A DNA stretch of 64,000 bases from Actinomycetota bacterium (GTDB taxonomy: Bacteria; Actinomycetota; Nitriliruptoria; Nitriliruptorales; JAHWKO01): contig JAHWKW010000015.1 of NCBI GenBank assembly GCA_019347675.1, forward strand, positions 17,655 to 81,654, given 5' to 3'. Below, piece after piece: positions 466 through 13,360 of the stretch. The notes under the pieces are model-generated. The model was not told the origin of the DNA and did not search any database. It worked only from the letters and a program-made list of their open reading frames with translations. A program made the position numbers and the translations under genes. How positions within the stretch are numbered: the stretch's first letter is position 1; every line of letters starts with the position of its first letter.

Positions 466-1097
466 CGCAGCTCCTCCGGTAGCCCCTCCACGTACCGCCC
501 GGTGAAGATCTCCGGCCCGAGATCGGATTCCACCGTGAAGACCGTGATGCCCTCCTCGTCGATCTCAGAGCCTGTGACGAACACGTTGAAGAACGCCGCG
601 ATCTTGTCGAACTCCAGCAGCAGCCGTTCCACGCCGGGCGCGTGACCGCGGAGGGTCTCGCCGGCTGCGGCCAGCGTGCCGAAGGATGGCCCGCCGAAGT
701 CGAACGGTCCCTGCTCCAACGCTTCCTGCGGGATCGTCACGGTCAGCGACGTCAACGCGGAGTCGGTGGGCATGACGGCGGCCACGTCCTGGAGGATCCC
801 GCCCAGCGAGGTCTCCGGCGCCATCACGGCGGTGAGGAGCTCGATCGTCTGGGTGCGTCGCTGGTCGAGCTCCGCGTAGGCGCTCAACTCTGTCACCTCG
901 GCCTGGAGCTCGTCGCGCTCCGCTTCGGCCGCTTCGAGCTCTCCTCTGGCGGCGTTGAGACGAGCGACCTGCAGTGCGTACAACAGCCCCAGGACGACCA
1001 GGAACGCGATCCCCGCGAGGACCAGCAGGAACCGCGCACGCCGAGCGCGTTCGCGGTCTTCGGCCTCGCGTGGGAGGAGGTTGACGCGCGAGCTCAC
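462..1097 (-). CDS. pilN: Type IV pilus assembly protein PilN (fimbrial assembly family)
   Basis: 211 aa. MSSRVNLLPRE... N-terminus, a single TM helix, then a coiled coil, which is typical of PilN. 4-nt overlap with the pilM stop. Confidence 0.75.
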   Translation of the reverse strand: MSSRVNLLPREAEDRERARRARFLLVLAGIAFLVVLGLLYALQVARLNAARGELEAAEAERDELQAEVTELSAYAELDQRRTQTIELLTAVMAPETSLGGILQDVAAVMPTDSALTSLTVTIPQEALEQGPFDFGGPSFGTLAAAGETLRGHAPGVERLLLEFDKIAAFFNVFVTGSEIDEEGITVFTVESDLGPEIFTGRYVEGLPEELR

Positions 1098-2137
1098 TCC
1101 AGACCCCCCAGCCCGAGCCCGATCGCTGTGGCCAGGAGCGGCTCGACCTCGCGCAACTGGTCGGGCCCGTAGGCGCTGCCACGGGCGGGAGCGGCCTCGA
1201 ACGGTCTGCCGCGATCCACCGGCACGCGCAGCGCGGTGGACAGCCGGTCGGCCAGTCCGGGGAGCTTCGAGCCCCCACCGGAGATCATCACCCGGGTCAC
1301 CTGGGCCGCTCCCGTCTGGGCCAGGAAGTAGTCGAGCGAGCCACGGACCTCGTCGACGAACTGGTTGACGCGGTCCTCGATCACCTGCACCGCTGTGGCG
1401 TCACCGCCGGTCAGGCCGGCCTGCATCTTGGTGGCCTCAGCGTCCTCGGTCGAGACCCCCAGGGAGGTGCCGAGCGCGTCGGTGATGTCGCCCCCGCCGA
1501 GCACCAGGATCCGCACGAAACGGGGGATGCCGCGCTCGTGGACGATGATGTTCGTGACACCGGCACCGATATCGACCACCATCTCCGCGCCGGTGGCGGT
1601 CTCGGGATCCGGGACCACGGCACGGAGCACCGCGAAGGCGTTGAGGTCCACACCGACCGGGCGGAGTCCGGCGCCCTCGACGACCGCGACGTGGTCGCCG
1701 ATCGACTCACGCTGAGCCGCGACGAGCAGGATGCGCATCATCCGCGCTCCGCCCTCGCCGGTGAACTCCTCGAGGCGCTGGAAATCCAGCTCGGCTTCCT
1801 CGACGGGGATCGGGATGTACTCCTGCACCTGGAAGCGCAGCGCCGATCGCAGCTCGCGCTCCTCCATGTAGGGCAGGTCGATCTGGCGGACCACGACCCG
1901 CTGGTTCGAGACGCCGAGGTGGACCCGTTTCTCGCGGAGCCCGGCGTCCGACCACAGCTGCCGGACGGCCGCGGTGACCGTGTCGCGCTCCACGATCTCT
2001 GCCTCGCGGACGGCCCCCCTGGGCAGCGTCACACCCCCGAAGTTGGTCGTCACCGGCTGGCCACGTTCACGCGACACCTGCGCCACGTGGACGGCGTGGG
2101 TGCCGATATCCAGGCCGATCGCTCCTCTCCTGGCCAC
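1094..2137 (-). CDS. pilM: Type IV pilus assembly protein PilM (actin-like ATPase fold)
   Basis: 347 aa. IGLDIGTHAVHVAQV phosphate-1 motif, ...VDIGAGVTNIIV..., ISGGGSKLPGL. Confidence 0.9.
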   Translation of the reverse strand: MARRGAIGLDIGTHAVHVAQVSRERGQPVTTNFGGVTLPRGAVREAEIVERDTVTAAVRQLWSDAGLREKRVHLGVSNQRVVVRQIDLPYMEERELRSALRFQVQEYIPIPVEEAELDFQRLEEFTGEGGARMMRILLVAAQRESIGDHVAVVEGAGLRPVGVDLNAFAVLRAVVPDPETATGAEMVVDIGAGVTNIIVHERGIPRFVRILVLGGGDITDALGTSLGVSTEDAEATKMQAGLTGGDATAVQVIEDRVNQFVDEVRGSLDYFLAQTGAAQVTRVMISGGGSKLPGLADRLSTALRVPVDRGRPFEAAPARGSAYGPDQLREVEPLLATAIGLGLGGLE

Positions 2138-2141
2138 CGTC

Positions 2142-2378
2142 CTACCCCTGCTCAGCCTGCACGGAGCCAGCCTTGAGGTAGGCCGCGAGGTCCTGTTGGC
2201 GGACCCGGTAGTTCTTGCCCACCCGCAGGGCCGACAGCTGGCCGCGGCGGATCAACCGGTACACGGTCATGTTCGACACCCTCAGCTCGGCCGCGACCTC
2301 GCTCACGGTGAGTAGACGCTCACGCTCGTCACCCCGGCTCCGCTGCCCCATCGGTTCCCTCGTCCCCCTACCGGCCAC
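2142..2378 (-). CDS. Small excisionase/MerR-like helix-turn-helix DNA-binding protein
   Basis: 78 aa. LLTVSEVAAELRVSNMTVYRLIRRGQLSALRVGKNYRV is the classic excisionase-family HTH. The start could instead be the internal Met10. Confidence 0.7.
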   Translation of the reverse strand: MAGRGTREPMGQRSRGDERERLLTVSEVAAELRVSNMTVYRLIRRGQLSALRVGKNYRVRQQDLAAYLKAGSVQAEQG

Positions 2379-2469
2379 GCCCGGACGGTCGACGGCGTCC
2401 CGTGCGCGGCCGACCTGGATAGCCGTCCGCAGCGTCGCCGCCTACGTGCTCTCCGCCGTTCGCGTGCCT

Positions 2470-2578
2470 CATCTCTAACGGCACTTGACACCTGTAACAC
2501 CATCAACAACAACAGTCAAGGGGAACTTTCGACACATGAGTGCTCAACTCTTGAATTACACCACGGTCATTTAGGGTG
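2470..2578 (-). promoter_or_regulatory. AT-rich putative promoter/operator region upstream of the HTH gene
   Basis: The locally lowest-GC stretch in the pil cluster. Minus strand reads TTGACT-17 nt-TACAGG. Inverted repeat CTTGAC(N25)GTCAAG at 2484-2520. Confidence 0.25.
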
Positions 2579-3430
2579 TCAGGCGAGGCCGAGCCAGGTC
2601 CGCAACACCGCGGCCAGAGGGTCGCCGGCGAGCATCGCGACGAGGGTGCCGATGGCGAGGTAGGGGCCGAACGGGATGCGGCTGGCCAGCCGCGCCCGGC
2701 CGGCGGCCATCAGGATCGCGGCCACGACGACGGCGGCGATGACGGTGGCGTACAGGCCGATCGCGACCTGCCACCCGCCGAGCCAGCCGAGGACCAAGCC
2801 CAGCGAGAAGGCCAGCTTGACGTCGCCCATCCCCATGCCCGCCTGGCCTCGCAACGTCCGGAAGATCTCGCTGAGGAGGAACATCCCCCCAGGGAGCGCG
2901 AGCCCGACGAGGACCGCACGGCGCAGATCGCTCCACTGTCCGCTGAGCGCCGCAGCTGCAACCAGAAGCGCCAGGATCACCGGTGTCAGACGGTACGTGA
3001 GCTTGTTGGGGATGATGCGGTGCTCGAGGTCGATGACCGTGGCAACGACCAGTGCCCACCCGATCACCAGGAACGCCGGTAGCGCCCACGTCAGGCCGTG
3101 GACGGCGGCGAGAAGCGCCCAGATGACGCCGACCAGGAGCTCGACCACCGGGTAGCGCCACGAGATCGGCTCACCACAGTTGCGACAGCGGCCGCGCAGG
3201 GCCAGCCACGAGACGACCGGGATGTTGTCGTAGGGCTTGATGTCCGTGCCGCATGCAGGGCACCGCGAGGTGGCCGGACGGAGGACGGATCCTTTCCGGG
3301 GCCATCGGTGGATCGCGACGTTCGCGAAGGACCCGAGGAGGAGACCGAACAGGCCGGATAGCGCGACAACCGGCCAGCCAGCGACGTTCATGAGGACGAG
3401 TGTAAGTGTGCCATCCGTCGGGAACGCCAA
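2579..3430 (-). CDS. pilD: Prepilin peptidase / N-methyltransferase (A24 family)
   Basis: 283 aa, polytopic. CPACG...CRNCG zinc motif and the conserved GMGMGDVKL aspartate box. Confidence 0.9.
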   Translation of the reverse strand: MAFPTDGTLTLVLMNVAGWPVVALSGLFGLLLGSFANVAIHRWPRKGSVLRPATSRCPACGTDIKPYDNIPVVSWLALRGRCRNCGEPISWRYPVVELLVGVIWALLAAVHGLTWALPAFLVIGWALVVATVIDLEHRIIPNKLTYRLTPVILALLVAAAALSGQWSDLRRAVLVGLALPGGMFLLSEIFRTLRGQAGMGMGDVKLAFSLGLVLGWLGGWQVAIGLYATVIAAVVVAAILMAAGRARLASRIPFGPYLAIGTLVAMLAGDPLAAVLRTWLGLA

Positions 3431-3459
3431 GCGGGGCGGCCCTTCAAGGGCCGCCCCGC
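3431..3459 (-). terminator. Strong GC hairpin downstream of pilA (terminator/attenuator candidate)
   Basis: GCGGGGCGGCCC-TTCAA-GGGCCGCCCCGC, a perfect 12-bp stem. It lies about 40 nt after the pilA stop and just before pilD. No clear U-tract. Confidence 0.5.
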
Positions 3460-3500
3460 GAGGAGTTGCTTGCGTAGAGCGAGGAGTTGCTTGGTAGAGC
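3460..3500. repeat. Tandem duplication of a 21-bp unit immediately 3' of pilA
   Basis: GAGGAGTTGCTTGCGTAGAGC followed by GAGGAGTTGCTTG-GTAGAGC (one base deleted). Confidence 0.7.
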
Positions 3501-3892
3501 TACGCGCAAGCGTTTGCGGCCGGCTTGCCGACCGTGCTGTTGAGGTGGAAGTCGACGCTACCTGCGGCGCCGAGCTTGGCGTGGTCGGCGTTGAGGCAGT
3601 AGACCGTCGTGCTCGCGGCCGGGGTCGCGGCAATGGTCACGGTGACGCCGTCGGAGGTCTTGAACGTACCGGCGTAGTTGGCGTACGAGCCGGTGTCGTT
3701 GAAGTGTTCCTCCATGACCACCGCAGAGTTGCGGAGGTCGGACTTCGCGGCGCTCTGCCACGCCTTCTCACGCTGGTTGAGGAACGTGGGGATCGCGATG
3801 GCCGCCAGGATGCCGATGATGATGACGACGACCAGCAGCTCGATCAGGGTGAAGCCCTCTTCCTCGCGGGCCTCGTGGATCTTGCGGATCAT
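3500..3892 (-). CDS. pilA: Type IVa major pilin
   Basis: 130 aa from Met at 3892. MIRKIHEAREEEG|FTLIELLVVVIIIGILAAIAIP is the class III signal and cleavage motif. C-terminal Cys pair (YCLN...ANACA). GAAAGG RBS. Confidence 0.9.
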   Translation of the reverse strand: MIRKIHEAREEEGFTLIELLVVVIIIGILAAIAIPTFLNQREKAWQSAAKSDLRNSAVVMEEHFNDTGSYANYAGTFKTSDGVTVTIAATPAASTTVYCLNADHAKLGAAGSVDFHLNSTVGKPAANACA

Positions 3893-4243
3893 GCGACTAC
3901 CTTTCGGTTGTTGTTGTTCGCTCCTGTGACGAACCGCCGGAACGAACTTCCCGTGCCCCCACAAGATCCGCTCCCGCGGTCCTGTGCGAGGCAGCCCGGC
4001 TGACCTTCCCGGCTTCCGCCGTGTGGGCCCCGTGGCTTTGCGTCCCCACCTCCCGGCGGGTTTGCCTTGAGACTCGCACTGCGGCTCGTCACGTACATGT
4101 TCGGCCGTGACGGCGGGCAGCTTTAGCGGTGGATCACCACAAGTTCGCGATCTGGGCTGTCGTTCCAGACCAGCGACCGGCCGTGCCACGGGCAGGGAGC
4201 CGGACGTCTGGCCACACCAGCGGCACGAGGGCCGGACGCAGGA

Positions 4244-4270
4244 GTGGCGGCCCCTGACAGGGGCCGCCAC
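4244..4270 (-). terminator. GC hairpin just downstream of pilC
   Basis: GTGGCGGCCCCTG-A-CAGGGGCCGCCAC, a near-perfect palindrome about 28 nt after the pilC stop. Confidence 0.45.
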
Positions 4271-4297
4271 CCACAGTGCGCGACGAGAGCGGTGCCG

Positions 4298-5533
4298 CTA
4301 CTCGACGAGGTCGATCACCTTGAAGATCGGCATGTACAGCGCGATCACCATGCTCCCAACGATCCCGCCGAGCACCGCGATCATGATCGGCTCCATCAGC
4401 GCCGTCAGCGACTCGGTCGTCGACTCGATCTCCTGGTCGTAGAAGTCCGAGACCTTCTCGAGCATCGTGTCGACCGCGCCGGTCTCCTCGCCCACCGCGA
4501 TCATCTGCACGACCATCGGCGGGAACGTGTCGTGGTTGGCGAGCGGAGCGGCGATGGACTCACCCTCCCGGACCGACTCCTGCACGTCCTTGACGGCGTT
4601 GCCGATGACACCGTTGTTCACGGTCTCGGCGGTGATCTCCAGCGCCTGGAGGATCGGGACGCCCGCACGCAGCAGCACCGAGAGGTTGCGGGCGAACCGC
4701 GACAGCGCGATCTTGTGGAACAGCGGGCCGAACACGGGCACCTTGAGCTTGAGGCGGTCCAGCTGGTACCGACCCTGTTCGGTCGCGCGGATCCGCTTGA
4801 ACGCGAACCAGAAACCGGCCGGAGCCACGATGAAGGTCACCAGCCCCGCCAAGCTGGACACGAAGTTCGACGCCATCATCAGGATCTTCGTCGGTGTCGG
4901 GAGCTCACCGCCGAGGTCCTCGAACATGCCGGCGAACACGGGCACGATGAACGCGAGCATCACACCGGTGAGCAGGATGGCCATGATCAAGACGATCACC
5001 GGGTAGGTCATCGCCGACTTGACCTTGCTGCGCAGCGCGACCTCCTTCTCCAGAGCCTCGGCGATGCGCAGCAGGACCTGGTCGAGCATCCCGGCGGTCT
5101 CGCCCGCCCGGACCATCGCGATGTACAGGCGCGGGAAGACCTTGTCGTGCTCGGCGAGCGCGCCCGACAGCGACTTGCCGGCCTCGACCTCCTGCCGGAT
5201 CTCACGGACGATCTCCGCGAGCCTCTTGCTCTCGGTCTGCTCGGCCAGGATCGACAGCGCACGGATCAGCGACAGACCGGAGTTGATCATGGTGGCGAAC
5301 TGGCGGCTGAAGATCGCGAGGTCCTTCAGCTTGACCTTGTTCCCGATCCCGGGGATCTTGATCTCGGTCTGCATGCCCGAGGTCTTGACCTGCTCGACGT
5401 TGACGGGCGTGTAGCCCATCTGACGCAGGCGCGCGACGACCGCCCCGGAGCTGTCGGCCTCGAGTTGGCCGCTGATCAGCTTCCCGGCCCGGTCGCGGAC
5501 CTGGTAGGTGTACTGTGCGGTGGCGGTCGCCAT
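4298..5533 (-). CDS. pilC: Type IV pilus platform protein PilC (GspF family)
   Basis: Start chosen at MATATAQYTYQV, preceded by AAGGAG. Duplicated T2SS-F domains: ...FSRQFATMINSGLSL... and ...FARNLSVLLRAGVPI... Confidence 0.9.
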   Translation of the reverse strand: MATATAQYTYQVRDRAGKLISGQLEADSSGAVVARLRQMGYTPVNVEQVKTSGMQTEIKIPGIGNKVKLKDLAIFSRQFATMINSGLSLIRALSILAEQTESKRLAEIVREIRQEVEAGKSLSGALAEHDKVFPRLYIAMVRAGETAGMLDQVLLRIAEALEKEVALRSKVKSAMTYPVIVLIMAILLTGVMLAFIVPVFAGMFEDLGGELPTPTKILMMASNFVSSLAGLVTFIVAPAGFWFAFKRIRATEQGRYQLDRLKLKVPVFGPLFHKIALSRFARNLSVLLRAGVPILQALEITAETVNNGVIGNAVKDVQESVREGESIAAPLANHDTFPPMVVQMIAVGEETGAVDTMLEKVSDFYDQEIESTTESLTALMEPIMIAVLGGIVGSMVIALYMPIFKVIDLVE

Positions 5534-5553
5534 GGTGGTTGACTCCTTGCCTG

Positions 5554-7155
5554 TCAGCCGCGGCCGGCCAGGCGGTTGAACTCCTGCACTTGGCTGCACT
5601 TGGAGAGCGCTTCTTCGTAGGTGACCTTGCCATTCTTCACGAGCGTGGCCAGCGACTGGTCCATCGCGACCATGCCGTGCTGGATGCCGGCCTGGATCGA
5701 GGAGTAGATCTGGTGGGTCTTGCCCTCGCGGATCAGGTTGCGCACCGCCGGGGTCGCCATCATGACCTCGCAGGCGACCGCGCGGCCTTGCCCGTCCGAG
5801 GTCTTGAGCAGCTGCTGTGAGACCACCCCCTGCAACGCCCCGGCCAGCTGCACCCGGATCTGTTCCTGCTGGTGCGGCGGGAACACGTCGATCACGCGGT
5901 CCACGGTCTGGGGTGCGTCCTGGGTGTGCAGGGTCGCGAACACCAGGTGGCCGGTCTCCGCTGCGGTGAGCGCGATCTGGATCGTCTCCAGGTCGCGCAT
6001 CTCCCCGACCAGGATCACGTCGGGGTCCTGGCGCAGCACGTGCTTGAGGGCGTGGTTGAACCCGTGGGTGTCGGTCCCGACCTCACGCTGGTTGATCACC
6101 GACTTCTTGTGCCTGTGGAGGAACTCGATCGGGTCCTCCACGGTCATGATGTGCACCGCTCGGTTGATGTTGATCAGATCGATCATCGACGCGAGCGTGG
6201 TGGACTTGCCCGACCCGGTCGGGCCGGTGACCAGCACGAAGCCGCGGGGCAGGTAGGCGAAGTTCGCGACCTGCGTCGGCACCCCGAGGTTCTCGAGCGG
6301 CTTGATCTCGAAGGGGATCACCCGCATCACCGAGCCGAGGGCGTCGCGCTGCTGGAAGATGTTCACGCGGAAGCGCGCCTTGCCCGGGACCGAGTACGAC
6401 AGGTCGAGCTCGAGGTTGTTCTCGAACGTCTCACGCTGCTTGTGCGTGAGGATCGCGTAGAGCAGCTTGCGCAGCTCGGTGGGCTCGAGCCTCGGGTAGC
6501 CCTCCAGCGGGGAAAGCTCGCCGTGCAACCGGATGGTCGGCGGGATGCCGGCGGTCAGGTGCAGGTCCGAGCCACCCGAGTCGACGAGCACCGTGAGGAG
6601 CTCGTCGAGGTCCAAGGCCGTCGTCTCCTCGGACTCGACCAGGCGCACCACCGGTGGCGCCCCGACGTTGGAGACGGTGCCTCCTCGGTCGTCGCCGACC
6701 GCGACCGCCGCGTCCTGCGCGCCGGCCTGGCCGACCGGCAGGTGCGCGATCGCGGCGAGGATCGCCCGGCGGGTCGACAGCGCCAGCTGCACGCGCATGC
6801 CGGTCTCCGCCTGGATGCGTTCGCGGGCGGCGCCGTTGTTTGGGTCGGCGACGGCGACGACCAACTCGTCACCGTCGCCGAAAGACACGGGAACAGCGAG
6901 GACCTCCTCCGCGACGGCGCGCGAGACCATCTCGGCTGCCAGCGGGTCGAGGCCGTCGCGGTCGAGGTCCACGAACCCCAAGCCAAGCTGCTGGGCGAGG
7001 GCGCGGACCAGGTGAATCTCGGAGACGAAACCGAGCTGCACCAGCGACTTGCCGAGGCTGGTGCCACGGTCACGGCGGTGCTGCTCCGCGCGATCGAGCT
7101 GAGCGGCGTCGATGACGCCCTGATCCAGCAGGATCTCTCCGAGCGCCTTGGCCAT
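5554..7155 (-). CDS. pilT: PilT-type retraction ATPase carrying a PilB-like T2SSE_N/MshEN-type N-terminal domain
   Basis: 533 aa from MAKALGEILL (AGGAG RBS). The core has [25 protein letters not shown] and the PilT signature AVRNLIREGKTHQIYS. No tetracysteine motif. About 190 aa of N-terminal extension. Confidence 0.85.
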   Translation of the reverse strand: MAKALGEILLDQGVIDAAQLDRAEQHRRDRGTSLGKSLVQLGFVSEIHLVRALAQQLGLGFVDLDRDGLDPLAAEMVSRAVAEEVLAVPVSFGDGDELVVAVADPNNGAARERIQAETGMRVQLALSTRRAILAAIAHLPVGQAGAQDAAVAVGDDRGGTVSNVGAPPVVRLVESEETTALDLDELLTVLVDSGGSDLHLTAGIPPTIRLHGELSPLEGYPRLEPTELRKLLYAILTHKQRETFENNLELDLSYSVPGKARFRVNIFQQRDALGSVMRVIPFEIKPLENLGVPTQVANFAYLPRGFVLVTGPTGSGKSTTLASMIDLININRAVHIMTVEDPIEFLHRHKKSVINQREVGTDTHGFNHALKHVLRQDPDVILVGEMRDLETIQIALTAAETGHLVFATLHTQDAPQTVDRVIDVFPPHQQEQIRVQLAGALQGVVSQQLLKTSDGQGRAVACEVMMATPAVRNLIREGKTHQIYSSIQAGIQHGMVAMDQSLATLVKNGKVTYEEALSKCSQVQEFNRLAGRG

Positions 7156-7250
7156 CACGACTCCTGTCCATCGCCCCGCGAGCGCGGGCCTCGTAGTGGA
7201 CCGTTCCAGGGGGGTTCTCGGACGTTGCGGAGGGCTTCTGAAGGGCGCCG

Positions 7251-8924
7251 TCAGACGACGACCCGACCGATCTCCTCGATGGTGGTGTCGCCCTGCATGA
7301 TCTTCGCCAGGCCATCCTGGCGGAGCCTGGCCATGCCCTGGCTCACCGCGACCCGCATGATCTCGTCCGACGAGGCGCGCTCGACGCAGAGCCGCTCGAT
7401 CTCCTCGGTCACCGCCATGACCTCGTGCACGGCCAGACGACCGCGGTACCCGGTCTTGCCGCAGCGGCTGCACCCCGCGGCGCGGAAGACCTCGGGCCTG
7501 GCTTCGACCACGTCCTCGGGGAAGCCGGCCTCCTTCAGCGTCGCCGGCGTGGGGGTGTAGGGCTCCTTGCAGCCGTTGCACAGGCGCCGCGCCAGCCGCT
7601 GCGCGAGCACGCAGTCGACCGCGGAGCCCACCAGGAACGGCTCGATCCCCATCTCGGTGAGCCGCACGATCGCCGACGGGGCGTCGTTGGTGTGCAGCGT
7701 GGTGAGGACGAGGTGGCCGGTCAGGGACGCCTCGACGGCGATCTGGGCGGTCTCGCGGTCACGGGTCTCGCCGACCAGGACGATGTCGGGGTCCTGACGC
7801 AGGATCGACCGCAGCGCCGACGCGAACGTCAGTCCGGCTTTGACGTTGACCTGGACCTGGTTGATCCCGCCGAGCCGGTACTCGACCGGGTCCTCGGTGG
7901 TGATGATGTTCACCTCGGGCCGGTTGAGGATGTTCAGCGTCGCGTAGAGGGTGGTGGATTTCCCGGACCCGGTCGGGCCGGTCACCAGCATCATCCCGTA
8001 GGGCTTGCGGAACGACGTCTCGTAGCGCTCGTAGTTCTCCGGGAGGAAGCCGAGGTCCTTCAGCTCCAGCAGGACAGAGGACTTGTCCAGGATCCGCATC
8101 ACGACCTTCTCGCCGTACACGGTCGGCAGGGTCGAGACACGCAGGTCGATGGCCTTGCCGCCGATCACCAGACCGATGCGCCCGTCCTGGGGGATGCGCC
8201 GTTCGGCGATGTCCATCTCGGCCATGATCTTCAGACGGGAGATCACCCCCGACTGGATGCTGCGCGGGCTGCGCATGACCTCGTGGAGGACGCCGTCGAT
8301 GCGGTAGCGGACCCGGATCTCCTTCTCGCCCGGCTCGATGTGGATGTCGGACGCCCGGTCCTGCACCGCCTGGGTGATCAGCAGGTTGACGAACTTGACG
8401 ATCGGGGCGTCTTCGACGACGGCAGTGACCTGGGAGAGGTCCTGCTGCTCTTCCTCGGGGGCAGCATTCAGGTCGGCGGCGAGGACGTCGCCGATGTCGT
8501 CGCTCATCCGGTGGTAGCGGCTGATGGCCTGGGCGATGTCCTGGCGGGTCGCCACGATCGGGCGGATGTCGTAGCCGGTGGCCGTGCGGATGTCGTCGAT
8601 GGCGAAGACGTTGGAGGGATCGCTCATCGCCACGACGAGCTTGCCGTCCTCGAAGCCGATGGGCAGGGCGTTGTACCGCTTGGCCACCGCGTCGCTGATC
8701 AGCGACACCGCGCTTGGATCGACGTCGATCGCGGCGAGGTCGACGAACTCCATCCCGATCTGCTTGGACAGCGCGCTGACCAGGTCCTGTTCGGTGACCA
8801 GCTTGCGGTCGATCAGGATCCGGCCCAGCGACTTCCCGAGTCGCCGCTGGTCTTCCTCGGCGTCGCGCAGCTGCTCGGGAGAGATCAGCCCCTCGCCCAG
8901 CAGGACCTGTCCGAGCTGCCTCAT
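7251..8924 (-). CDS. pilB: Type IV pilus extension ATPase PilB (GspE family)
   Basis: 557 aa. N-terminal T2SSE_N domain, Walker [11 protein letters not shown], and the tetracysteine motif CNGCK...[12 protein letters not shown]. Confidence 0.92.
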
Positions 8925-9526
8925 CGCTGTCCCGCCTCACCGACGAGCGTCGGTCCCGAGGACCGCACGACCTCGCGGACGGTCTCGAGCAGGGCCACCA
9001 CGACCTCCTTCACGCTGTCGCGCTCGCGGACGTCGGACGCCACCACCCGCACGTCCGACGGCAGCCGCAGCCGTTCGCGCACACGGGCGGCGTACGCGTC
9101 GGCGTCGTCACCCGCGGGCACCTTGTTGACCGCGACCACGTAGGGAACATCGGCCACGTCGAGGAAGAACTTCAGGATGCGGGCGCCTTCGTCCAGGGAT
9201 GCGTCCCGCTGGGCGTCGACCACGAGGACGAAACCGAGCATCCCCTCGGCGAGGATCTCCCACATGAAGTCGAAGCGCTCCTGTCCGGGCGTGCCGAACA
9301 GGTACAGCGCCAGGTCGCCGCCCACGGTGATCCGCCCGAAGTCCATGGCGACGGTCGTCTCGGACTTCAGCGCCCGGGTGTGGTCGCTGATTTCGCGCTC
9401 GGTGGACAGCACCGTGATCTCGGAGATCGTCCGGATCAGGGTGGTCTTCCCCGCGGCGAACGGGCCGGCGACGACGATCTTCAGCGTCCGGCCCTTGCCT
9501 CCTCGTGCGCGGTCGCGGCGGATCAT
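8921..9526 (-). CDS. Small Ras-like GTPase (MglA/CvnD-like ATP/GTP-binding protein)
   Basis: 201 aa. P-loop [11 protein letters not shown], switch [16 protein letters not shown] in place of NKxD. Its stop overlaps the pilB ATG (ATGA). Confidence 0.75.
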
Positions 9527-10666
9527 CTACAGCGCCTTCACGCCCGCGATGAGGCGGTCCAACGTTTCCTCGTCCAGGTCCGGATCGGTCGTGATCCGTC
9601 GTTCGGTTGCTGGGGCGAACCGCTTCGGGCTGGTCGGGCCGGTCGAGCCGCCGACATCAGCCGACTCGGACGCCGATGGGACCGCCGTGGGGCGCGCCTG
9701 GAGCGGTCCGGGGGCGCGCGGCGGCGCCTCGGCCGGGGGCGTGAACGTGCCAGCTGGTCGCGGTGAGGTGCCGGCGGCACGCGGAGAGGCCTCGGCCGGG
9801 CGGAGAGGGGTCGCGGGGCGCGACGGCTCGTCGGGCGCGCGCGGGGCTGAGGCGAGGCGGCGCTGGGGCGCCGGCTCGAAGGCTGCTGCGCCCTCCTCGA
9901 GCTGGCGGATCAGTTCGACCTCGTCCAGGATCGCCGCGACCGACGAGGGGCCCTGGACGTCGACGTCGCGGACCTCCAGCACACCGGCGCCGACCATCCC
10001 GTACAGCAGCTTGCAGACGGCGAACTCACCCTTGCCGCTGAGCTCGACGAGGTCCCCGATCGTGCGCCGGCCGTCGACCATCGTCAGCAGCCGCCACTCC
10101 TCGGGCTTGAGGTTGACCTCGACACCGGCATCGTCGGGCGCCGGGGCCATCGCCACGACCGCCTCCAGGCCGGGGATCTTCTTGCGGACGGCGTCCCACT
10201 CCTGCAGGCGCCGAGAGCCCTCCATGATCAGGTTCTCGACCGTGACGGTGAGCCCGATCGGCTCGGCGAGGTCCAGGGCCGACTCGAACGCGAACTGGCC
10301 GTCGCTCCAGCGCATCAGGTCGAAGACCGCGTCCTGGATCTGCTCGCGGACGAACGTCTCGAGCGTGGCATCGTCGATCACGCGCTGCTCGACGAGGATG
10401 GTCCCCAACCGCGGACCACCGAGCTCGCGCTGCTGCTCCAAGGCCTGCTGGACCTGCTCGGCGGTGACCCGCCCGGCGGCGGCGAGCCGCTTGCCCAACG
10501 CCAGCCGGCCACCGCTGGCCAGCGCGTAGTAGACCTGACCGTCTCTGAACCAGACCTTGCCCTGACCACGGTCGCTGTGCAGGTCGAGCCGACCGGACTT
10601 CTTGGTCAGCGCCAGCAGCTGGAAGATGTCCGGCAGGCTGAAGCTGTCGAGGGTGCCCTCGAGCAT
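9527..10666 (-). CDS. DUF4388 (PATAN)-domain protein with a Pro/Ala-rich linker
   Basis: 379 aa. N-terminus LEGTLDSFSLPDIFQLLALTKKSGRLDL...GKVWFRDGQVYYA is the DUF4388 hallmark. Its stop abuts the GTPase start. Confidence 0.7.
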   Translation of the reverse strand: MLEGTLDSFSLPDIFQLLALTKKSGRLDLHSDRGQGKVWFRDGQVYYALASGGRLALGKRLAAAGRVTAEQVQQALEQQRELGGPRLGTILVEQRVIDDATLETFVREQIQDAVFDLMRWSDGQFAFESALDLAEPIGLTVTVENLIMEGSRRLQEWDAVRKKIPGLEAVVAMAPAPDDAGVEVNLKPEEWRLLTMVDGRRTIGDLVELSGKGEFAVCKLLYGMVGAGVLEVRDVDVQGPSSVAAILDEVELIRQLEEGAAAFEPAPQRRLASAPRAPDEPSRPATPLRPAEASPRAAGTSPRPAGTFTPPAEAPPRAPGPLQARPTAVPSASESADVGGSTGPTSPKRFAPATERRITTDPDLDEETLDRLIAGVKAL

Positions 10667-10708
10667 CGACCGAGATCCTCTCTTAACCCGACGTCGGTCG
10701 GGTCCTCG

Positions 10709-11176
10709 TCATCGCCACGCCGCTTCTTGAGCGGGGGGCTCGCTCTGCGGGGCGCCGGGGCCGGCGATGACCGCCGCGTAAGGGTCCTCGTCCTCGCGAC
10801 CCTCCAGGAGCACGTCACCGACCCGGGCGGCTGCGCGCCGCATCTCGAAGAGCATGAAACCGATCTTGGCCGTGCGACGCGCCACCGCGGTCAGCACGGC
10901 CTGGTCCTTGGCGGACATCAGGAACACGAAGCCCTGCTCGCCCTCGACGAAGATCTGGTTGAGCTGGCCGCGACCGAGACCCAGTGCTGCCTGCTCGCCC
11001 AACGACAGCAACGCGGCGCTCATCGCGCCGAGGCGGTCCTCCTCCATCTCCGCGGGCAGCGCGCTGGCCATGGGGAGGCCGTCGAACGACACGACGGCGG
11101 CAGCCTCCACGTCCGGGGAGCTCTGGATGAAGTCGTCGAGCGCCGCGGCGAGGCGCTGTGCCTTGGAATCAGCCAT
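10709..11176 (-). CDS. Roadblock/LC7 domain protein (MglB/CvnB-like)
   Basis: 155 aa. ...VEAAAVVSFDGLPMASA...RLGAMSAALLSLGEQAA...GQLNQIFVEGEQGFVFL... matches the Roadblock pattern. Confidence 0.7.
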   Translation of the reverse strand: MADSKAQRLAAALDDFIQSSPDVEAAAVVSFDGLPMASALPAEMEEDRLGAMSAALLSLGEQAALGLGRGQLNQIFVEGEQGFVFLMSAKDQAVLTAVARRTAKIGFMLFEMRRAAARVGDVLLEGREDEDPYAAVIAGPGAPQSEPPAQEAAWR

Positions 11177-11384
11177 CGTGACCCTCCTCGGTCAGCCCCC
11201 GCGGTCGCGGGTGGCGCGTGGCCGTAGCGCTGCACCCCCACGCACCAGAAGTCGGCAGGATCGCAGACCGACTTGAGGTCGCCCGGACGTGGCGAGCGCC
11301 CGTCCCTCCAGGCAGAGGGTAATAGCCGGCATGCCGGCGCGGGGCGGCTGGTGAGACGCTATCAACGGACGCCGAGCGCTCCTC

Positions 11385-12257
11385 TCAGCGTCCGCTCGGG
11401 ACGGTCAGCTTCGCGACCGCGGCCGCGGACATGATCCCGATCGGCGCGTCCTGCCCGGTCCAGCGGCGGTAGCTCGCCGCCGCCTGCGCGACCAGCATCC
11501 CCAGGCCGTGGTGGGCGTCGGCTCCGGACGCACGCGCCGCCTCGAGGAACGGCGTCTCGGCCGGTCGGTAGACCAGGTCGAGCGCCATCTGGTCCGCGCG
11601 GAGCTGGTGGAACGGGTCGGGCAGCGGCTCACCGGCCATCCCCAGTGGGGTGGCGTTGATCGCGAGCGCCGACTCGGCGACCGCCTCCTCCACCCACGCG
11701 TCCTCGTCCAGGCCGATCGCGCGCGCCTGCGGCGCCCCGCATCGCTCCGCCAGTCCCACCAGGTCCTCCGCGGCGTCGCGTCGACGCCCGATGACGGTGA
11801 CCGGCGCCCCGACGCGGCCCAACGCCACCACGCAGGCCCGGGCCGCCCCGCCGGTCCCGAGCACCACCGTCGGAGCGCCGGGCGGCAGGTTGAGATCCTC
11901 CTGCAGGACCCTTCCCACGCCCACCGCGTCGGTGTTGTCCCCGACCAGCCCGTCCGGGCCCCACACCAGCGTATTGACGGCGCCGACGAGACGCGCTTCC
12001 TCTGTGAGCCGATCGCACAGGCGGGTGACGTTCTCCTTGTGCGGGACGGTGACGTTGGCGCCGATCGCCTCGACAGCCCCAAGCGCCTCGACGACCGTGG
12101 CGAGCGCGTCCGGGGATGTGGGCAGCACGACGTAGACGAGGTCCAGCCCCTGCTCACGGAACGCGCTGTTGTGCATCACCGGCGACAGCGAGTGACGTAC
12201 CGGCCAACCGAGCAAGGCCACGAGCCGGGTGGAGGCCGCTGGCCAGCGGGCGTTCAC
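11385..12257 (-). CDS. aroE: Shikimate dehydrogenase
   Basis: 290 aa. GWPVRHSLSPVMHNSAF and GTGGAARA NADP motifs. Confidence 0.85.
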   Translation of the reverse strand: MNARWPAASTRLVALLGWPVRHSLSPVMHNSAFREQGLDLVYVVLPTSPDALATVVEALGAVEAIGANVTVPHKENVTRLCDRLTEEARLVGAVNTLVWGPDGLVGDNTDAVGVGRVLQEDLNLPPGAPTVVLGTGGAARACVVALGRVGAPVTVIGRRRDAAEDLVGLAERCGAPQARAIGLDEDAWVEEAVAESALAINATPLGMAGEPLPDPFHQLRADQMALDLVYRPAETPFLEAARASGADAHHGLGMLVAQAAASYRRWTGQDAPIGIMSAAAVAKLTVPSGR

Positions 12258-13360
12258 GACCCGTCCGGGCTCGGTGTCGCCGCCGTCGGTCCCGGTCGTG
12301 GGCGTTCGCGCAGCCTCTCGTACTCGGCCTTGTTGCGCTGGTGCTCCTGAAACGTCTCGGCGAAGGCGTGGCGGCCCTCCTCGTCCTTGATCACGTAGTA
12401 CAGGTAGTCGGTGTCGGCGGGAGAGAAGGCGGCTTCGATCGCGGCGCTGCCCGGCGACGCGATCGGGGTGGGTGGCAGGCCGGCCCGCTGGTAGAGGTTG
12501 TACGGCGAATCGACCGTCAGGTACTCGCCGGCGACCCGGTCGGTGTGCTCCCCCACCGCGTAGATGTTCGCAGCGTCGACCTGCAGCGGCTGTCCCGCCT
12601 CAAGACGGTTGTGGATGACCCCCGAGACCAGCGCGCGTTCCTCCGCGACCCTGACCTCCTCTTCGATCAGGCTCGCGATGACCAGCACCTCGTAGCGGTC
12701 GTAGCCGCGCGACGCAGCCGCCTCGATCGAGGTGTCGGGGACGGAATCGACCACCGAGGTGAGCTCGTCCACCATGCGCTGCAGGACCGCCTGTGGGGTC
12801 GCTCGCTTCGTGGAGAACTCGTATGTCTCGGGGAACAACAGGCCCTCGTAGGGGCTGCGCACGCCCGCCGGGAAATCCTGCAGCGGCGGGACCCAGTCCG
12901 GCACGGACAGCTGGCGATCGTCGAGGACCGCCCGGTACTCGTCGACGCTGAACGGCGACTCCTCGGCCAGCCTGGCCAGGATCTGGTCCACGGTCCAGCC
13001 CTCGGGGATGGTGAACCGGAACGACGCCGGGCTGCGCGGTCCGGCGAGGAAGCGGTCGATCGCCTGGTCGACGCTCATGCCGGTTTCGAAGTCGTAGGTG
13101 CCGGCCTGCAGTTCACGGTCGAGACCACGGCTGCGGGCCTTCAACCGGAAAGCCATCGCCGAACGCACCACATCCTTGTCTTCGAGTTCCTGTGCGACCG
13201 TGGCGGCGTTGGACCCTTCCGCGATCTCGACCGAGACGGGTGCTCCTTCGCCGGGCTCACCGCCGAGGCTCCACGCGACGTACGCCAGACCGCCGCCGAC
13301 GGCCACGACGCCCGCGACGAGGATGACCAGCACCCACATCGCACCGCGGCTCAGCGCCAT
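12254..13360 (-). CDS. mltG: Endolytic murein transglycosylase MltG (YceG family)
   Basis: 368 aa. N-terminal TM helix and the ...ASLIEEEVRVAEERALVSGVIHNRL... catalytic region. Confidence 0.85.
   Translation of the reverse strand: MALSRGAMWVLVILVAGVVAVGGGLAYVAWSLGGEPGEGAPVSVEIAEGSNAATVAQELEDKDVVRSAMAFRLKARSRGLDRELQAGTYDFETGMSVDQAIDRFLAGPRSPASFRFTIPEGWTVDQILARLAEESPFSVDEYRAVLDDRQLSVPDWVPPLQDFPAGVRSPYEGLLFPETYEFSTKRATPQAVLQRMVDELTSVVDSVPDTSIEAAASRGYDRYEVLVIASLIEEEVRVAEERALVSGVIHNRLEAGQPLQVDAANIYAVGEHTDRVAGEYLTVDSPYNLYQRAGLPPTPIASPGSAAIEAAFSPADTDYLYYVIKDEEGRHAFAETFQEHQRNKAEYERLRERPRPGPTAATPSPDGS

Follow-up and report, generated by a model that had tools for sequence, protein, structure and literature searches.

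In Myxococcus xanthus, type IVa pili are activated at the leading pole by the Ras-like GTPase MglA and its Roadblock partner MglB, which work with SgmX, RomR/RomX and RomY, and regulation of pili by MglA is likewise described in PMC13343842. In cyanobacteria, the PatA-type PATAN-REC regulators PixG, PixE, LsiR and TaxP combine a receiver domain with a PATAN domain that carries a helical insertion, the "alpha-clip", and that binds the N-terminal domains of PilB1 and PilC and sets pilus polarity. The PATAN domain of PixE alone binds both N-terminal domains and reverses phototaxis in Synechocystis (Han et al., bioRxiv 10.1101/2021.06.11.447907), and the same study remarks that PATAN genes regularly have MglA/MglB homologues encoded close by. 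A published survey lists, under MglA Group 5, gene triads with the order MglB>PATAN>MglA from seven Aquificae, from Roseiflexus (Chloroflexi) and from the actinobacterium Acidothermus cellulolyticus, among them Acel_1323 (193 amino acids, aa), Aquifex aeolicus aq_1844 and Roseiflexus RoseRS_3912 (PMC4316618, Table S2); according to that survey, Group 1 and Group 5 genes lie "occasionally" near PATAN genes and Group 5 neighbourhoods are widely variable (PMC4316618). Here we describe such a triad, encoding a Roadblock protein, a PATAN (DUF4388) protein and an MglA-family GTPase, at the head of a type IVa pilus operon in a 64-kb stretch of contig JAHWKW010000015.1 from a member of the Nitriliruptorales (Actinomycetota), referred to below as the window (about 70% GC). 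We consider it somewhat more probable than its alternatives taken together that this triad is a GTPase switch built into the operon and controlling the extension motor.

The genes in question all lie on the minus strand, in the order aroE, Roadblock, PATAN, GTPase, pilB, pilT-family, pilC, pilin, pilD, a helix-turn-helix (HTH) gene and pilM. Three open reading frames (ORFs) of the same strand precede pilB, as the original prediction had claimed from the letters alone, and profile hidden Markov model searches upheld the family assigned to each of them. The first (10709..11176) encodes a Roadblock/LC7 protein of the MglB/CvnB type, 155 aa long, which matches PF03259 with 64.5 bits (cut-off 23; E=7.6e-18). 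The second (9527..10666) encodes a DUF4388/PATAN adaptor protein of 379 aa, whose match to PF14332 (122.7 bits, E=1.1e-35) extends over model positions 1-121 of 122 and residues 3-157; this whole-model match, together with an alpha-helical insertion between strands, identifies a PATAN domain. The third (8921..9526) encodes a small GTPase of 201 aa that matches ATP_bind_1 (PF03029, E=3.9e-17), Ras (PF00071, 26.8 bits against a cut-off of 21.6) and small_GTP (TIGR00231, 43.9 bits against 42.5). The motifs on which the assignments had been based are present, namely the P-loop, switch II and NKVP of the GTPase and LEGTLDSFSLPDIFQLL...GKVWFRDGQVYYA of the DUF4388 protein, and the two junctions singled out can be read directly in the sequence: the PATAN stop abuts the GTPase start (TAG|ATG at 9527/9526), and the GTPase TGA overlaps the pilB ATG in the ATGA at 8921-8924. 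The gap between the Roadblock and PATAN genes is 42 nt. The pilB gene itself (7251..8924) encodes a type IVa extension ATPase with an N-terminal MshEN domain, identified by TIGR02538 (685 bits, cut-off 675.65), PF00437 (E=7.7e-144), MshEN PF05157 (E=3e-25) and NF053729 (E=2e-16).

Triad and pilus genes occur together well beyond this contig. Loci were surveyed by tblastn with the window proteins, and a profile built from 25 PATAN homologues (alignment A1) retrieved 358 relatives among one-genome-per-species contigs, the best 80 of which were inspected; ten further loci were added through exact-protein look-ups. Of these loci, 58 extend 3.5 kb or more downstream of the triad, and in 55 of them PilB is encoded after the GTPase, in most cases with PilT and PilC behind it; the order aroE-Roadblock-PATAN-GTPase-PilB-PilT-PilC was found in Nitriliruptorales, non-gut Coriobacteriia, Geothermincola and other Actinomycetota. 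Because the same order recurs in so many related loci, the arrangement is more than chance. The linkage also holds in loci reached independently by protein searches (L001, L002, L084, L086, L088 and L089); L088, with Roadblock, PATAN, GTPase and PilB all present, belongs to a cultured organism, Nitriliruptor alkaliphilus (GCA_000969705.1, KQ033901.1, about 3,592,400-3,596,500). Wherever both ORFs were called, 23-82 nt separate the Roadblock gene from the PATAN gene downstream of it, except in L084 (504 nt). PATAN and GTPase genes are within about 25 nt of each other or overlap in most loci, and the few gaps of 150-720 nt are probably effects of ORF calling or frameshifts. In L088 and in the Nitriliruptorales-type loci L004-L010 the GTPase and pilB genes are separated by −4 to +2 nt, as in the window, and translational coupling of the triad to pilB is probable within this clade. 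As a portable unit, the triad is joined to the type IVa pilus cluster in most sampled Actinomycetota, and the proposal that a GTPase module is wired to the extension ATPase gains the backing of a strongly conserved synteny.

The closest described relatives of the module are the Group 5 triads, with which it shares the three families and their order, a GTPase of about 175-200 aa, a GTPGQ G3 motif and Thr in place of the arginine finger. The composition and order of the triad are not new, since Table S2 of PMC4316618 lists MglB>PATAN>MglA. The entries of the 2014 table carry no assigned function and no reported pil link, whereas here the triad stands at the head of a type IVa operon. Group 5 triads are thus a computationally catalogued kind that appears in the sources as table entries without assigned function. 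At the sequence level, the nearest database proteins to the GTPase and the PATAN protein come from metagenome-assembled genomes (MAGs): a protein of a public "Actinobacteria bacterium" MAG, annotated as "ATP/GTP-binding protein", matches the GTPase with 100% identity, a partial protein of another MAG entry matches the PATAN protein with 97% identity, and the next PATAN relatives (50-69% identity) come from Nitriliruptorales and unclassified Actinomycetota MAGs.

The GTPase is a single domain with a complete P-loop, and its motifs are G1 GPFAAGKTT, G2 TTVAMDFG, G3 FGTPGQERF, G4 NKVP and G5 SDVR. Across 74 homologues G1 (GPFxAGKTT), G2 (TTVAMDFG) and G3 (FGTPGQxRF) are invariant. The closest solved relative is MglA (E=5.4e-6), and alignment of ETTVAMDFG with DRTLFFDF of MglA shows that the arginine finger is absent (DRT replaced by ETT), the TT being invariant in the 74 homologues. 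In the scheme of Wuichet & Søgaard-Andersen (2014, PMC4316618), GTPases that combine GTPGQ with Thr at the arginine-finger position make up MglA Groups 2-5, and these features of the window GTPase agree with those groups; the Roadblock gene lies two genes upstream of it and, in all surveyed loci, within the four genes allowed. The neighbourhood MglB>PATAN>MglA is that of Group 5. The resemblance to M. xanthus lies in the pairing of a Ras-like GTPase with a Roadblock protein and in a functional link, here a proposed one, to PilB and pili. Unlike here, the M. xanthus mgl genes lie outside the pil cluster and the effector is SgmX, a tetratricopeptide repeat protein, rather than a PATAN protein; the GTPases are also distant (E about 5e-6), with DRTL and TVPGQ in MglA against ETTV and GTPGQ in the window protein.

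The Roadblock protein finds its best matches in the Protein Data Bank in 7f8m (E=1.7e-22), Rv3364c (E=1.3e-11) and CvnB5 (3leq, E=6e-9). Its core, VS.DG..MASALP, is highly conserved, while the C-terminal tail is not, and D32-G33 is invariant among 14 Roadblock homologues; the Asp-Gly pair is a feature of the MglB partners of Groups 2-5 (PMC4316618). GTPase-activating protein (GAP) activity is known only for MglB and for MfpD (CvnB) (PMC13343842).

The matches to CvnB5 and Rv3364c bear on the ancestry of the module. The original prediction had presented it as a kinase-less, DUF742-less variant of the conservons (also AGPS; CvnA-D, MfpB/C/D), and one can picture a degenerate conservon that lost the CvnABCD kinase and in which the PATAN protein took over the exchange-factor role of CvnC. 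The order Roadblock, middle protein, GTPase does mirror cvnB-cvnC-cvnD, the G5 motif is DAR-like as in Groups 2 and 3, Group 2 being that of CvnD, and MfpC (CvnC) is reported to be a guanine nucleotide exchange factor and MfpD (CvnB) to act as GAP on MfpB (PMC13343842). The description as kinase-less and DUF742-less holds, since neither a kinase nor DUF742 homology was found here. The descent from a conservon is not supported: the same MglB>PATAN>MglA order occurs in Aquificae and Chloroflexi, where conservons are absent, and the published classification puts it in Group 5, not in Group 2; a kinase is nearby in none of the inspected loci with listed genes, the CvnA position in the window being occupied by aroE; and the middle protein is a PATAN protein instead of a CvnC/DUF742 protein. 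The G4 motif, which in the window keeps the Lys and has lost the Asp, points only in part the same way. [NT]KxD is consistent with Group 5, whereas Group 2 (CvnD) has NxFD without Lys (PMC4316618), and in the present family G4 is variable, with N in 58, K in 47 and D in 39 of 74 sequences and with roughly half of its members reading NK[VLI]D. Judged by these motifs, the family keeps the Lys that is missing from Group 2 GTPases yet shares their G5 motif. Given the lack of kinase and DUF742 and the triads in phyla without conservons, we regard a conservon origin as quite improbable.

The PATAN protein is the most elaborate of the three. In its AlphaFold2 model (mean pLDDT 78.5; residues 1-260 mostly above 90), a beta-alpha-beta3 core is interrupted by a helical insertion (57-118) and continues with another strand and a long helix; there follow a three-helix-plus-strand, winged-helix-like domain (188-233), a disordered, Pro/Ala-rich linker and a terminal helix (366-378). 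It shares with the PATAN-REC regulators the PATAN domain with its alpha-clip insertion. Binding of the PilB1 and PilC N-terminal domains has been shown only for Synechocystis proteins and is putative for the window protein, which moreover lacks a receiver domain, so that its input would be the GTPase/Roadblock pair instead of phosphorylation, and has in addition the winged-helix-like domain, the disordered linker and the C-terminal helix. This last element, ...RITTDPDLDEETLDRLIAGVKAL (9530..9604), stands out among 25 homologues: the C-terminal 25 or so residues, which occupy A1 columns of about 660-687 and have the consensus I.RDP.VN..LL.RLIAGVRGL, are kept despite unalignable linkers of 100-1000 aa, and D361, L368, R371, L372, I373, G375, V376 and L379 are nearly invariant. 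Such conservation at the end of a variable tether makes the helix a candidate docking peptide. A comparison of the PATAN core with Roadblock/longin-like domains was negative, the profile-profile probability of A1 against the Roadblock alignment A2 being 0.1, and that relationship was rejected. A whole-chain Foldseek search with the model gave no match at E<=0.001, a local match to MshEN being the sole meaningful one; the top whole-chain matches, to yeast SEA and human GATOR1 subunits (regulators of Rag GTPases), scored E of about 0.08 with probabilities of 0.85-0.99 over 83-180 columns and are too weak to use.

The middle domain (about residues 185-235, EEWRLLTMVDGRRTIGDLV..., 9962..10114) is recognised both as a conserved block, with W191, G199, R201 and G211 invariant in A1, and in the AlphaFold2 model, and its winged-helix-like fold raises the question of whether the PATAN protein binds DNA and controls transcription of the pil operon, with the GTPase and Roadblock proteins as modulators, in the manner of conservon outputs. 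MarR_2 is matched weakly by 9 of the 25 homologues (best E=0.0012), and according to PMC13343842 the Cvn8 system affects gene expression. The window protein itself, on the other hand, matches no HTH family even at E<=10, nor any other Pfam family or DUF742 in this region; Han et al. give reasons why PatA-type proteins are unlikely to bind DNA, and show that they localise to membrane and motor; and translational coupling to pilB points to a stoichiometric partnership at the protein level. A role as transcriptional regulator thus appears to us a poor prospect. Homology of the middle domain to CvnC/DUF742 was rejected, there being no DUF742 match in any of the 25 homologues at E<=1 and just the weak MarR_2/winged-HTH matches.

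The insertion in the PATAN domain (residues 56-109, 10340..10501) consists of two tandem 24-residue motifs of MshEN type, ALGKRLAAAGRVTAEQVQQALEQQ and RLGTILVEQRVIDDATLETFVREQ, separated by a 6-residue spacer. The published MshEN motif is a tandem of two 24-residue units, RLGxx(L/V/I)(L/V/I)xxG(L/V/I)(L/V/I)xxxxLxxxLxxQ, which form a four-helix bundle with a 5-residue spacer (Wang et al. 2016, PMC5013675). Residues 57-109 match the NCBIfam model NF053729 (c-di-GMP_motif, MshE-related) with 42.4 bits (cut-off 38; E=4.3e-11), and the A1 profile in turn matches the N-termini of Thermus PilF, Geobacter and Myxococcus PilB and Vibrio MshE (E=1.6e-7 to 4.4e-5). The model of the insertion superposes on cyclic di-GMP (c-di-GMP)-bound MshE (5htl_B) with 0.9 Å over 56 columns at 34% identity, and on c-di-GMP-bound PilF domains with 1.3-1.4 Å, identities being 33-34% overall. 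As modelled, the insertion is a four-helix bundle of the MshEN_N type. It resembles the domains of Vibrio cholerae MshE and Thermus PilF in its tandem motifs, its bundle and its NF053729 score above the cut-off, and differs from them in position, since theirs stand at the N-terminus of an ATPase and this one is inserted within a PATAN domain, and in its longer spacer. Han et al. cite Makarova et al. 2006 for the occurrence of alpha-clip repeats at the start of type II secretion and type IV pilus ATPases; the searched literature held no report of an MshEN-type PATAN insertion and no paper linking the PATAN insertion to c-di-GMP.

Whether such a bundle might hold the ligand can be judged from individual positions. 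Motif 1 keeps 9 of 11 constrained positions, with Ala for the first Arg and Arg at hydrophobic position 11, and motif 2 keeps 10 of 11, with Arg at the turn Gly. Hydrophobic motif positions were found to matter most, and a change of Arg9 altered affinity less than 5-fold (Wang et al. 2016, PMC5013675); the PATAN insertion keeps every one of the hydrophobic positions singled out there. At least one exact relaxed motif is present in 67 of 79 homologues. Binding of c-di-GMP by the insertion is plausible from the motifs and the superpositions. A candidate alternative, by analogy with the suggestion of Han et al., is that the insertion mimics the PilB N-terminus.

The retraction ATPase of the same operon offers a further module of this kind. 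The PilT-family protein (5554..7155, 533 aa; TIGR01420, 489 bits) also begins with an MshEN domain (PF05157, E=1.4e-14; NF053729, E=1e-13). A module of the c-di-GMP type on a retraction ATPase is unusual, and no MshEN-carrying PilT was reported in the literature searched. The domain was also seen on PilT in L001, L002 and L088, and not in L084, L086 and L089. MshEN-type modules on PATAN, PilB and PilT together are the one potentially new feature of the locus. It is tempting to go further and propose that three receptors in one operon read c-di-GMP, so that the second messenger and the GTP/GDP state together set extension against retraction, an idea that we put forward as speculative and rather unlikely. 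No GG[DE]EF or HD-GYP motif of c-di-GMP turnover enzymes was found in the window, where E[AV]LxR strings alone occur and are non-specific. If the idea were true, the pilus motor of a Gram-positive bacterium would be under a G-protein switch gated by c-di-GMP, and the long-known, unexplained PATAN alpha-clip would have a ligand.

A working scheme for the switch can be assembled from the characterised systems, each functional link in it having a precedent there. The GTPase would cycle between GTP- and GDP-bound states, with the Roadblock dimer as its GAP, by analogy to MglB acting on MglA and to MfpD (CvnB) acting on MfpB. In its GTP-bound state the GTPase would act through the PATAN protein as effector or adaptor, and the PATAN protein would contact the PilB N-terminal domain, PilC or both, as cyanobacterial PATAN domains do. 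Docking of the PATAN protein would then license or position extension, that is, set the time or place at which PilB engages the platform. The MshEN-like bundle may add a c-di-GMP input or compete with the PilB N-terminus, and the tethered C-terminal helix may dock the GTPase/Roadblock pair. Every step of this scheme is carried over from characterised relatives; the locus itself contributes domain identities, gene junctions and synteny.

Several observations weigh against a dedicated pilus switch. Support for the proposed function of the triad comes from sequence, synteny and models. The G4 motif of the window GTPase, NKVP, keeps the Lys and is without the guanine-specifying Asp. Both motifs of the PATAN insertion deviate at constrained positions and neither passes the published relaxed regular expression; since that expression of Wang et al. 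also fails on the N-termini of the window PilB and PilT, which strongly match NF053729, it is not treated here as a necessary criterion. Outside the Nitriliruptorales clade, in Coriobacteriia-type and other loci, 430-1700 nt separate the GTPase and pilB genes and contain a variable ORF of low complexity. Genomic inspection extends to the best 80 of the 358 relatives, and three more distant relatives, L003, L085 and L087, have polysaccharide instead of pil genes after the triad. In L003 (9760-17179) and L085 (10037-17236), which are Mycobacteriales-type MAGs, the triad follows whiA and is itself followed by glycosyltransferase, Wzy and DegT genes; in L087 (9717-17122) it occupies the same aroE site, with a flippase, methyltransferases and an epimerase downstream and no pil genes within 7.4 kb. 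The polysaccharide neighbourhoods of these three loci indicate that the module is not obligatorily tied to pili.

Such neighbourhoods would be expected if the triad were a general envelope or polarity switch that also serves polysaccharide export, its adjacency to pil genes arising mainly from a shared alaS-ruvX-mltG-aroE neighbourhood and pili being one of several outputs, or an indirect one. The wide variability of Group 5 neighbourhoods noted by Wuichet & Søgaard-Andersen (PMC4316618) would fit as well. This account has to contend with a pil linkage in 55 of 58 loci from several classes, with the start/stop overlap with pilB kept within the Nitriliruptorales clade, and with the binding of PilB and PilC by PATAN in the sole tested system. 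The MshEN-like motifs, moreover, are most degenerate in the polysaccharide-linked L003 and L085 (L087 scores like the window), which suggests that the polysaccharide-linked copies are derived. We therefore consider a general envelope switch unlikely, if less so than a transcriptional or conservon-derived module, and the recurrence of the layout across many Actinomycetota makes it likely that the triad is a pilus switch; its exclusive dedication to pili is not proven, in view of L003, L085 and L087.

Some loci depart from the window in other ways. The ORF that separates GTPase and pilB genes elsewhere, and that the window lacks, is exemplified by L017 (12516-13340), L038 (about 12300-12800) and L084 (10122-11072); in L017 its product has a transmembrane helix at the N-terminus, a stretch rich in Pro and Ala, and a short C-terminal segment that is conserved. 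A second PilB-like ATPase, also full-length, is encoded between aroE and the Roadblock gene in 44 loci (among L011-L083, Coriobacteriia-type; for example L017, 7504-9153), where the triad thus lies between two PilB paralogues; several of these clusters are without a PilT match. In L066 (10001-14410) and L070 the PATAN protein reaches a giant size, about 1470 aa; both loci also have two tandem Roadblock genes, and aroE after the GTPase instead of before the triad.

In the window, aroE (11385-12257, minus strand) is the gene upstream of the Roadblock gene, and the 208-nt region between the two (11177..11384) is the sole sizeable gap upstream of the module and presumed to hold its promoter. A promoter and terminator scan of 2000-12500 found no sigma-70-like site, the scan being uninformative for promoters at 70% GC, and no terminator between 11384 and pilB; the lone terminator-like site is on the plus strand, inside pilT. 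Downstream of pilB and pilT, again on the minus strand, pilC (4298..5599) encodes the platform protein (PF00482, E=4.5e-71; NF052607, E=8.9e-140) and probably starts at an ATG near 5533. The major pilin (3500..3892) carries the prepilin motif GFTLIELLVV, found by PF07963 and TIGR02532 at residues 138-160 of a longer ORF. That longest ORF (3500-4270) would encode 256 aa, with the cleavage motif beginning at residue 138, and the real gene is almost certainly the one that starts at 3892 (MIRKIHEAREEEGFTLIELLVV...) and gives a product of 130 aa. There follow the prepilin peptidase gene pilD (2579..3430; PF06750, E=9.7e-34; PF01478, E=3.8e-14) and pilM (1094..2137; PF11104, E=3.3e-55; TIGR01175, 217.6 bits), and the joint presence of PilB, PilT, PilC, pilin, prepilin peptidase and PilM marks the cluster as type IVa. 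Kept between pilD and pilM is a 78-aa, excisionase-type HTH gene (2142-2378, minus strand; HTH_17 in the relatives L001 and L002), a possible transcriptional regulator within the pilus cluster.

Searches of the literature returned no description of type IVa pilus regulation in Actinomycetota, no systematic embedding of the triad in actinobacterial pilus operons, no start/stop coupling to pilB and no experiment on a Group 5 triad. The statement in the original prediction that no GTPase switch is known to have been described for type IVa pili of a Gram-positive actinobacterium agrees with these searches, which returned none for actinobacterial type IV pili, and its claim to novelty is somewhat too strong: the embedding in a pil operon is undescribed in the searched literature, while the neighbourhood of PATAN with MglA/MglB genes and the binding of PATAN to PilB had already been published.

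The locus adds a conserved candidate for pilus regulation, in which a G-protein module of three proteins is physically coupled to pilB. With the module present in the cultured Nitriliruptor alkaliphilus, and in Acidothermus cellulolyticus according to the 2014 table, the hypothesis is directly testable. Should the proposed mechanism prove wrong, the variants next to polysaccharide genes would speak for a switch that serves surface structures more generally. If it is right, it would join MglA/MglB polarity switches, PATAN-PilB binding and c-di-GMP sensing by MshEN in one system, and GTPase control of pili would reach well beyond the Myxococcota.

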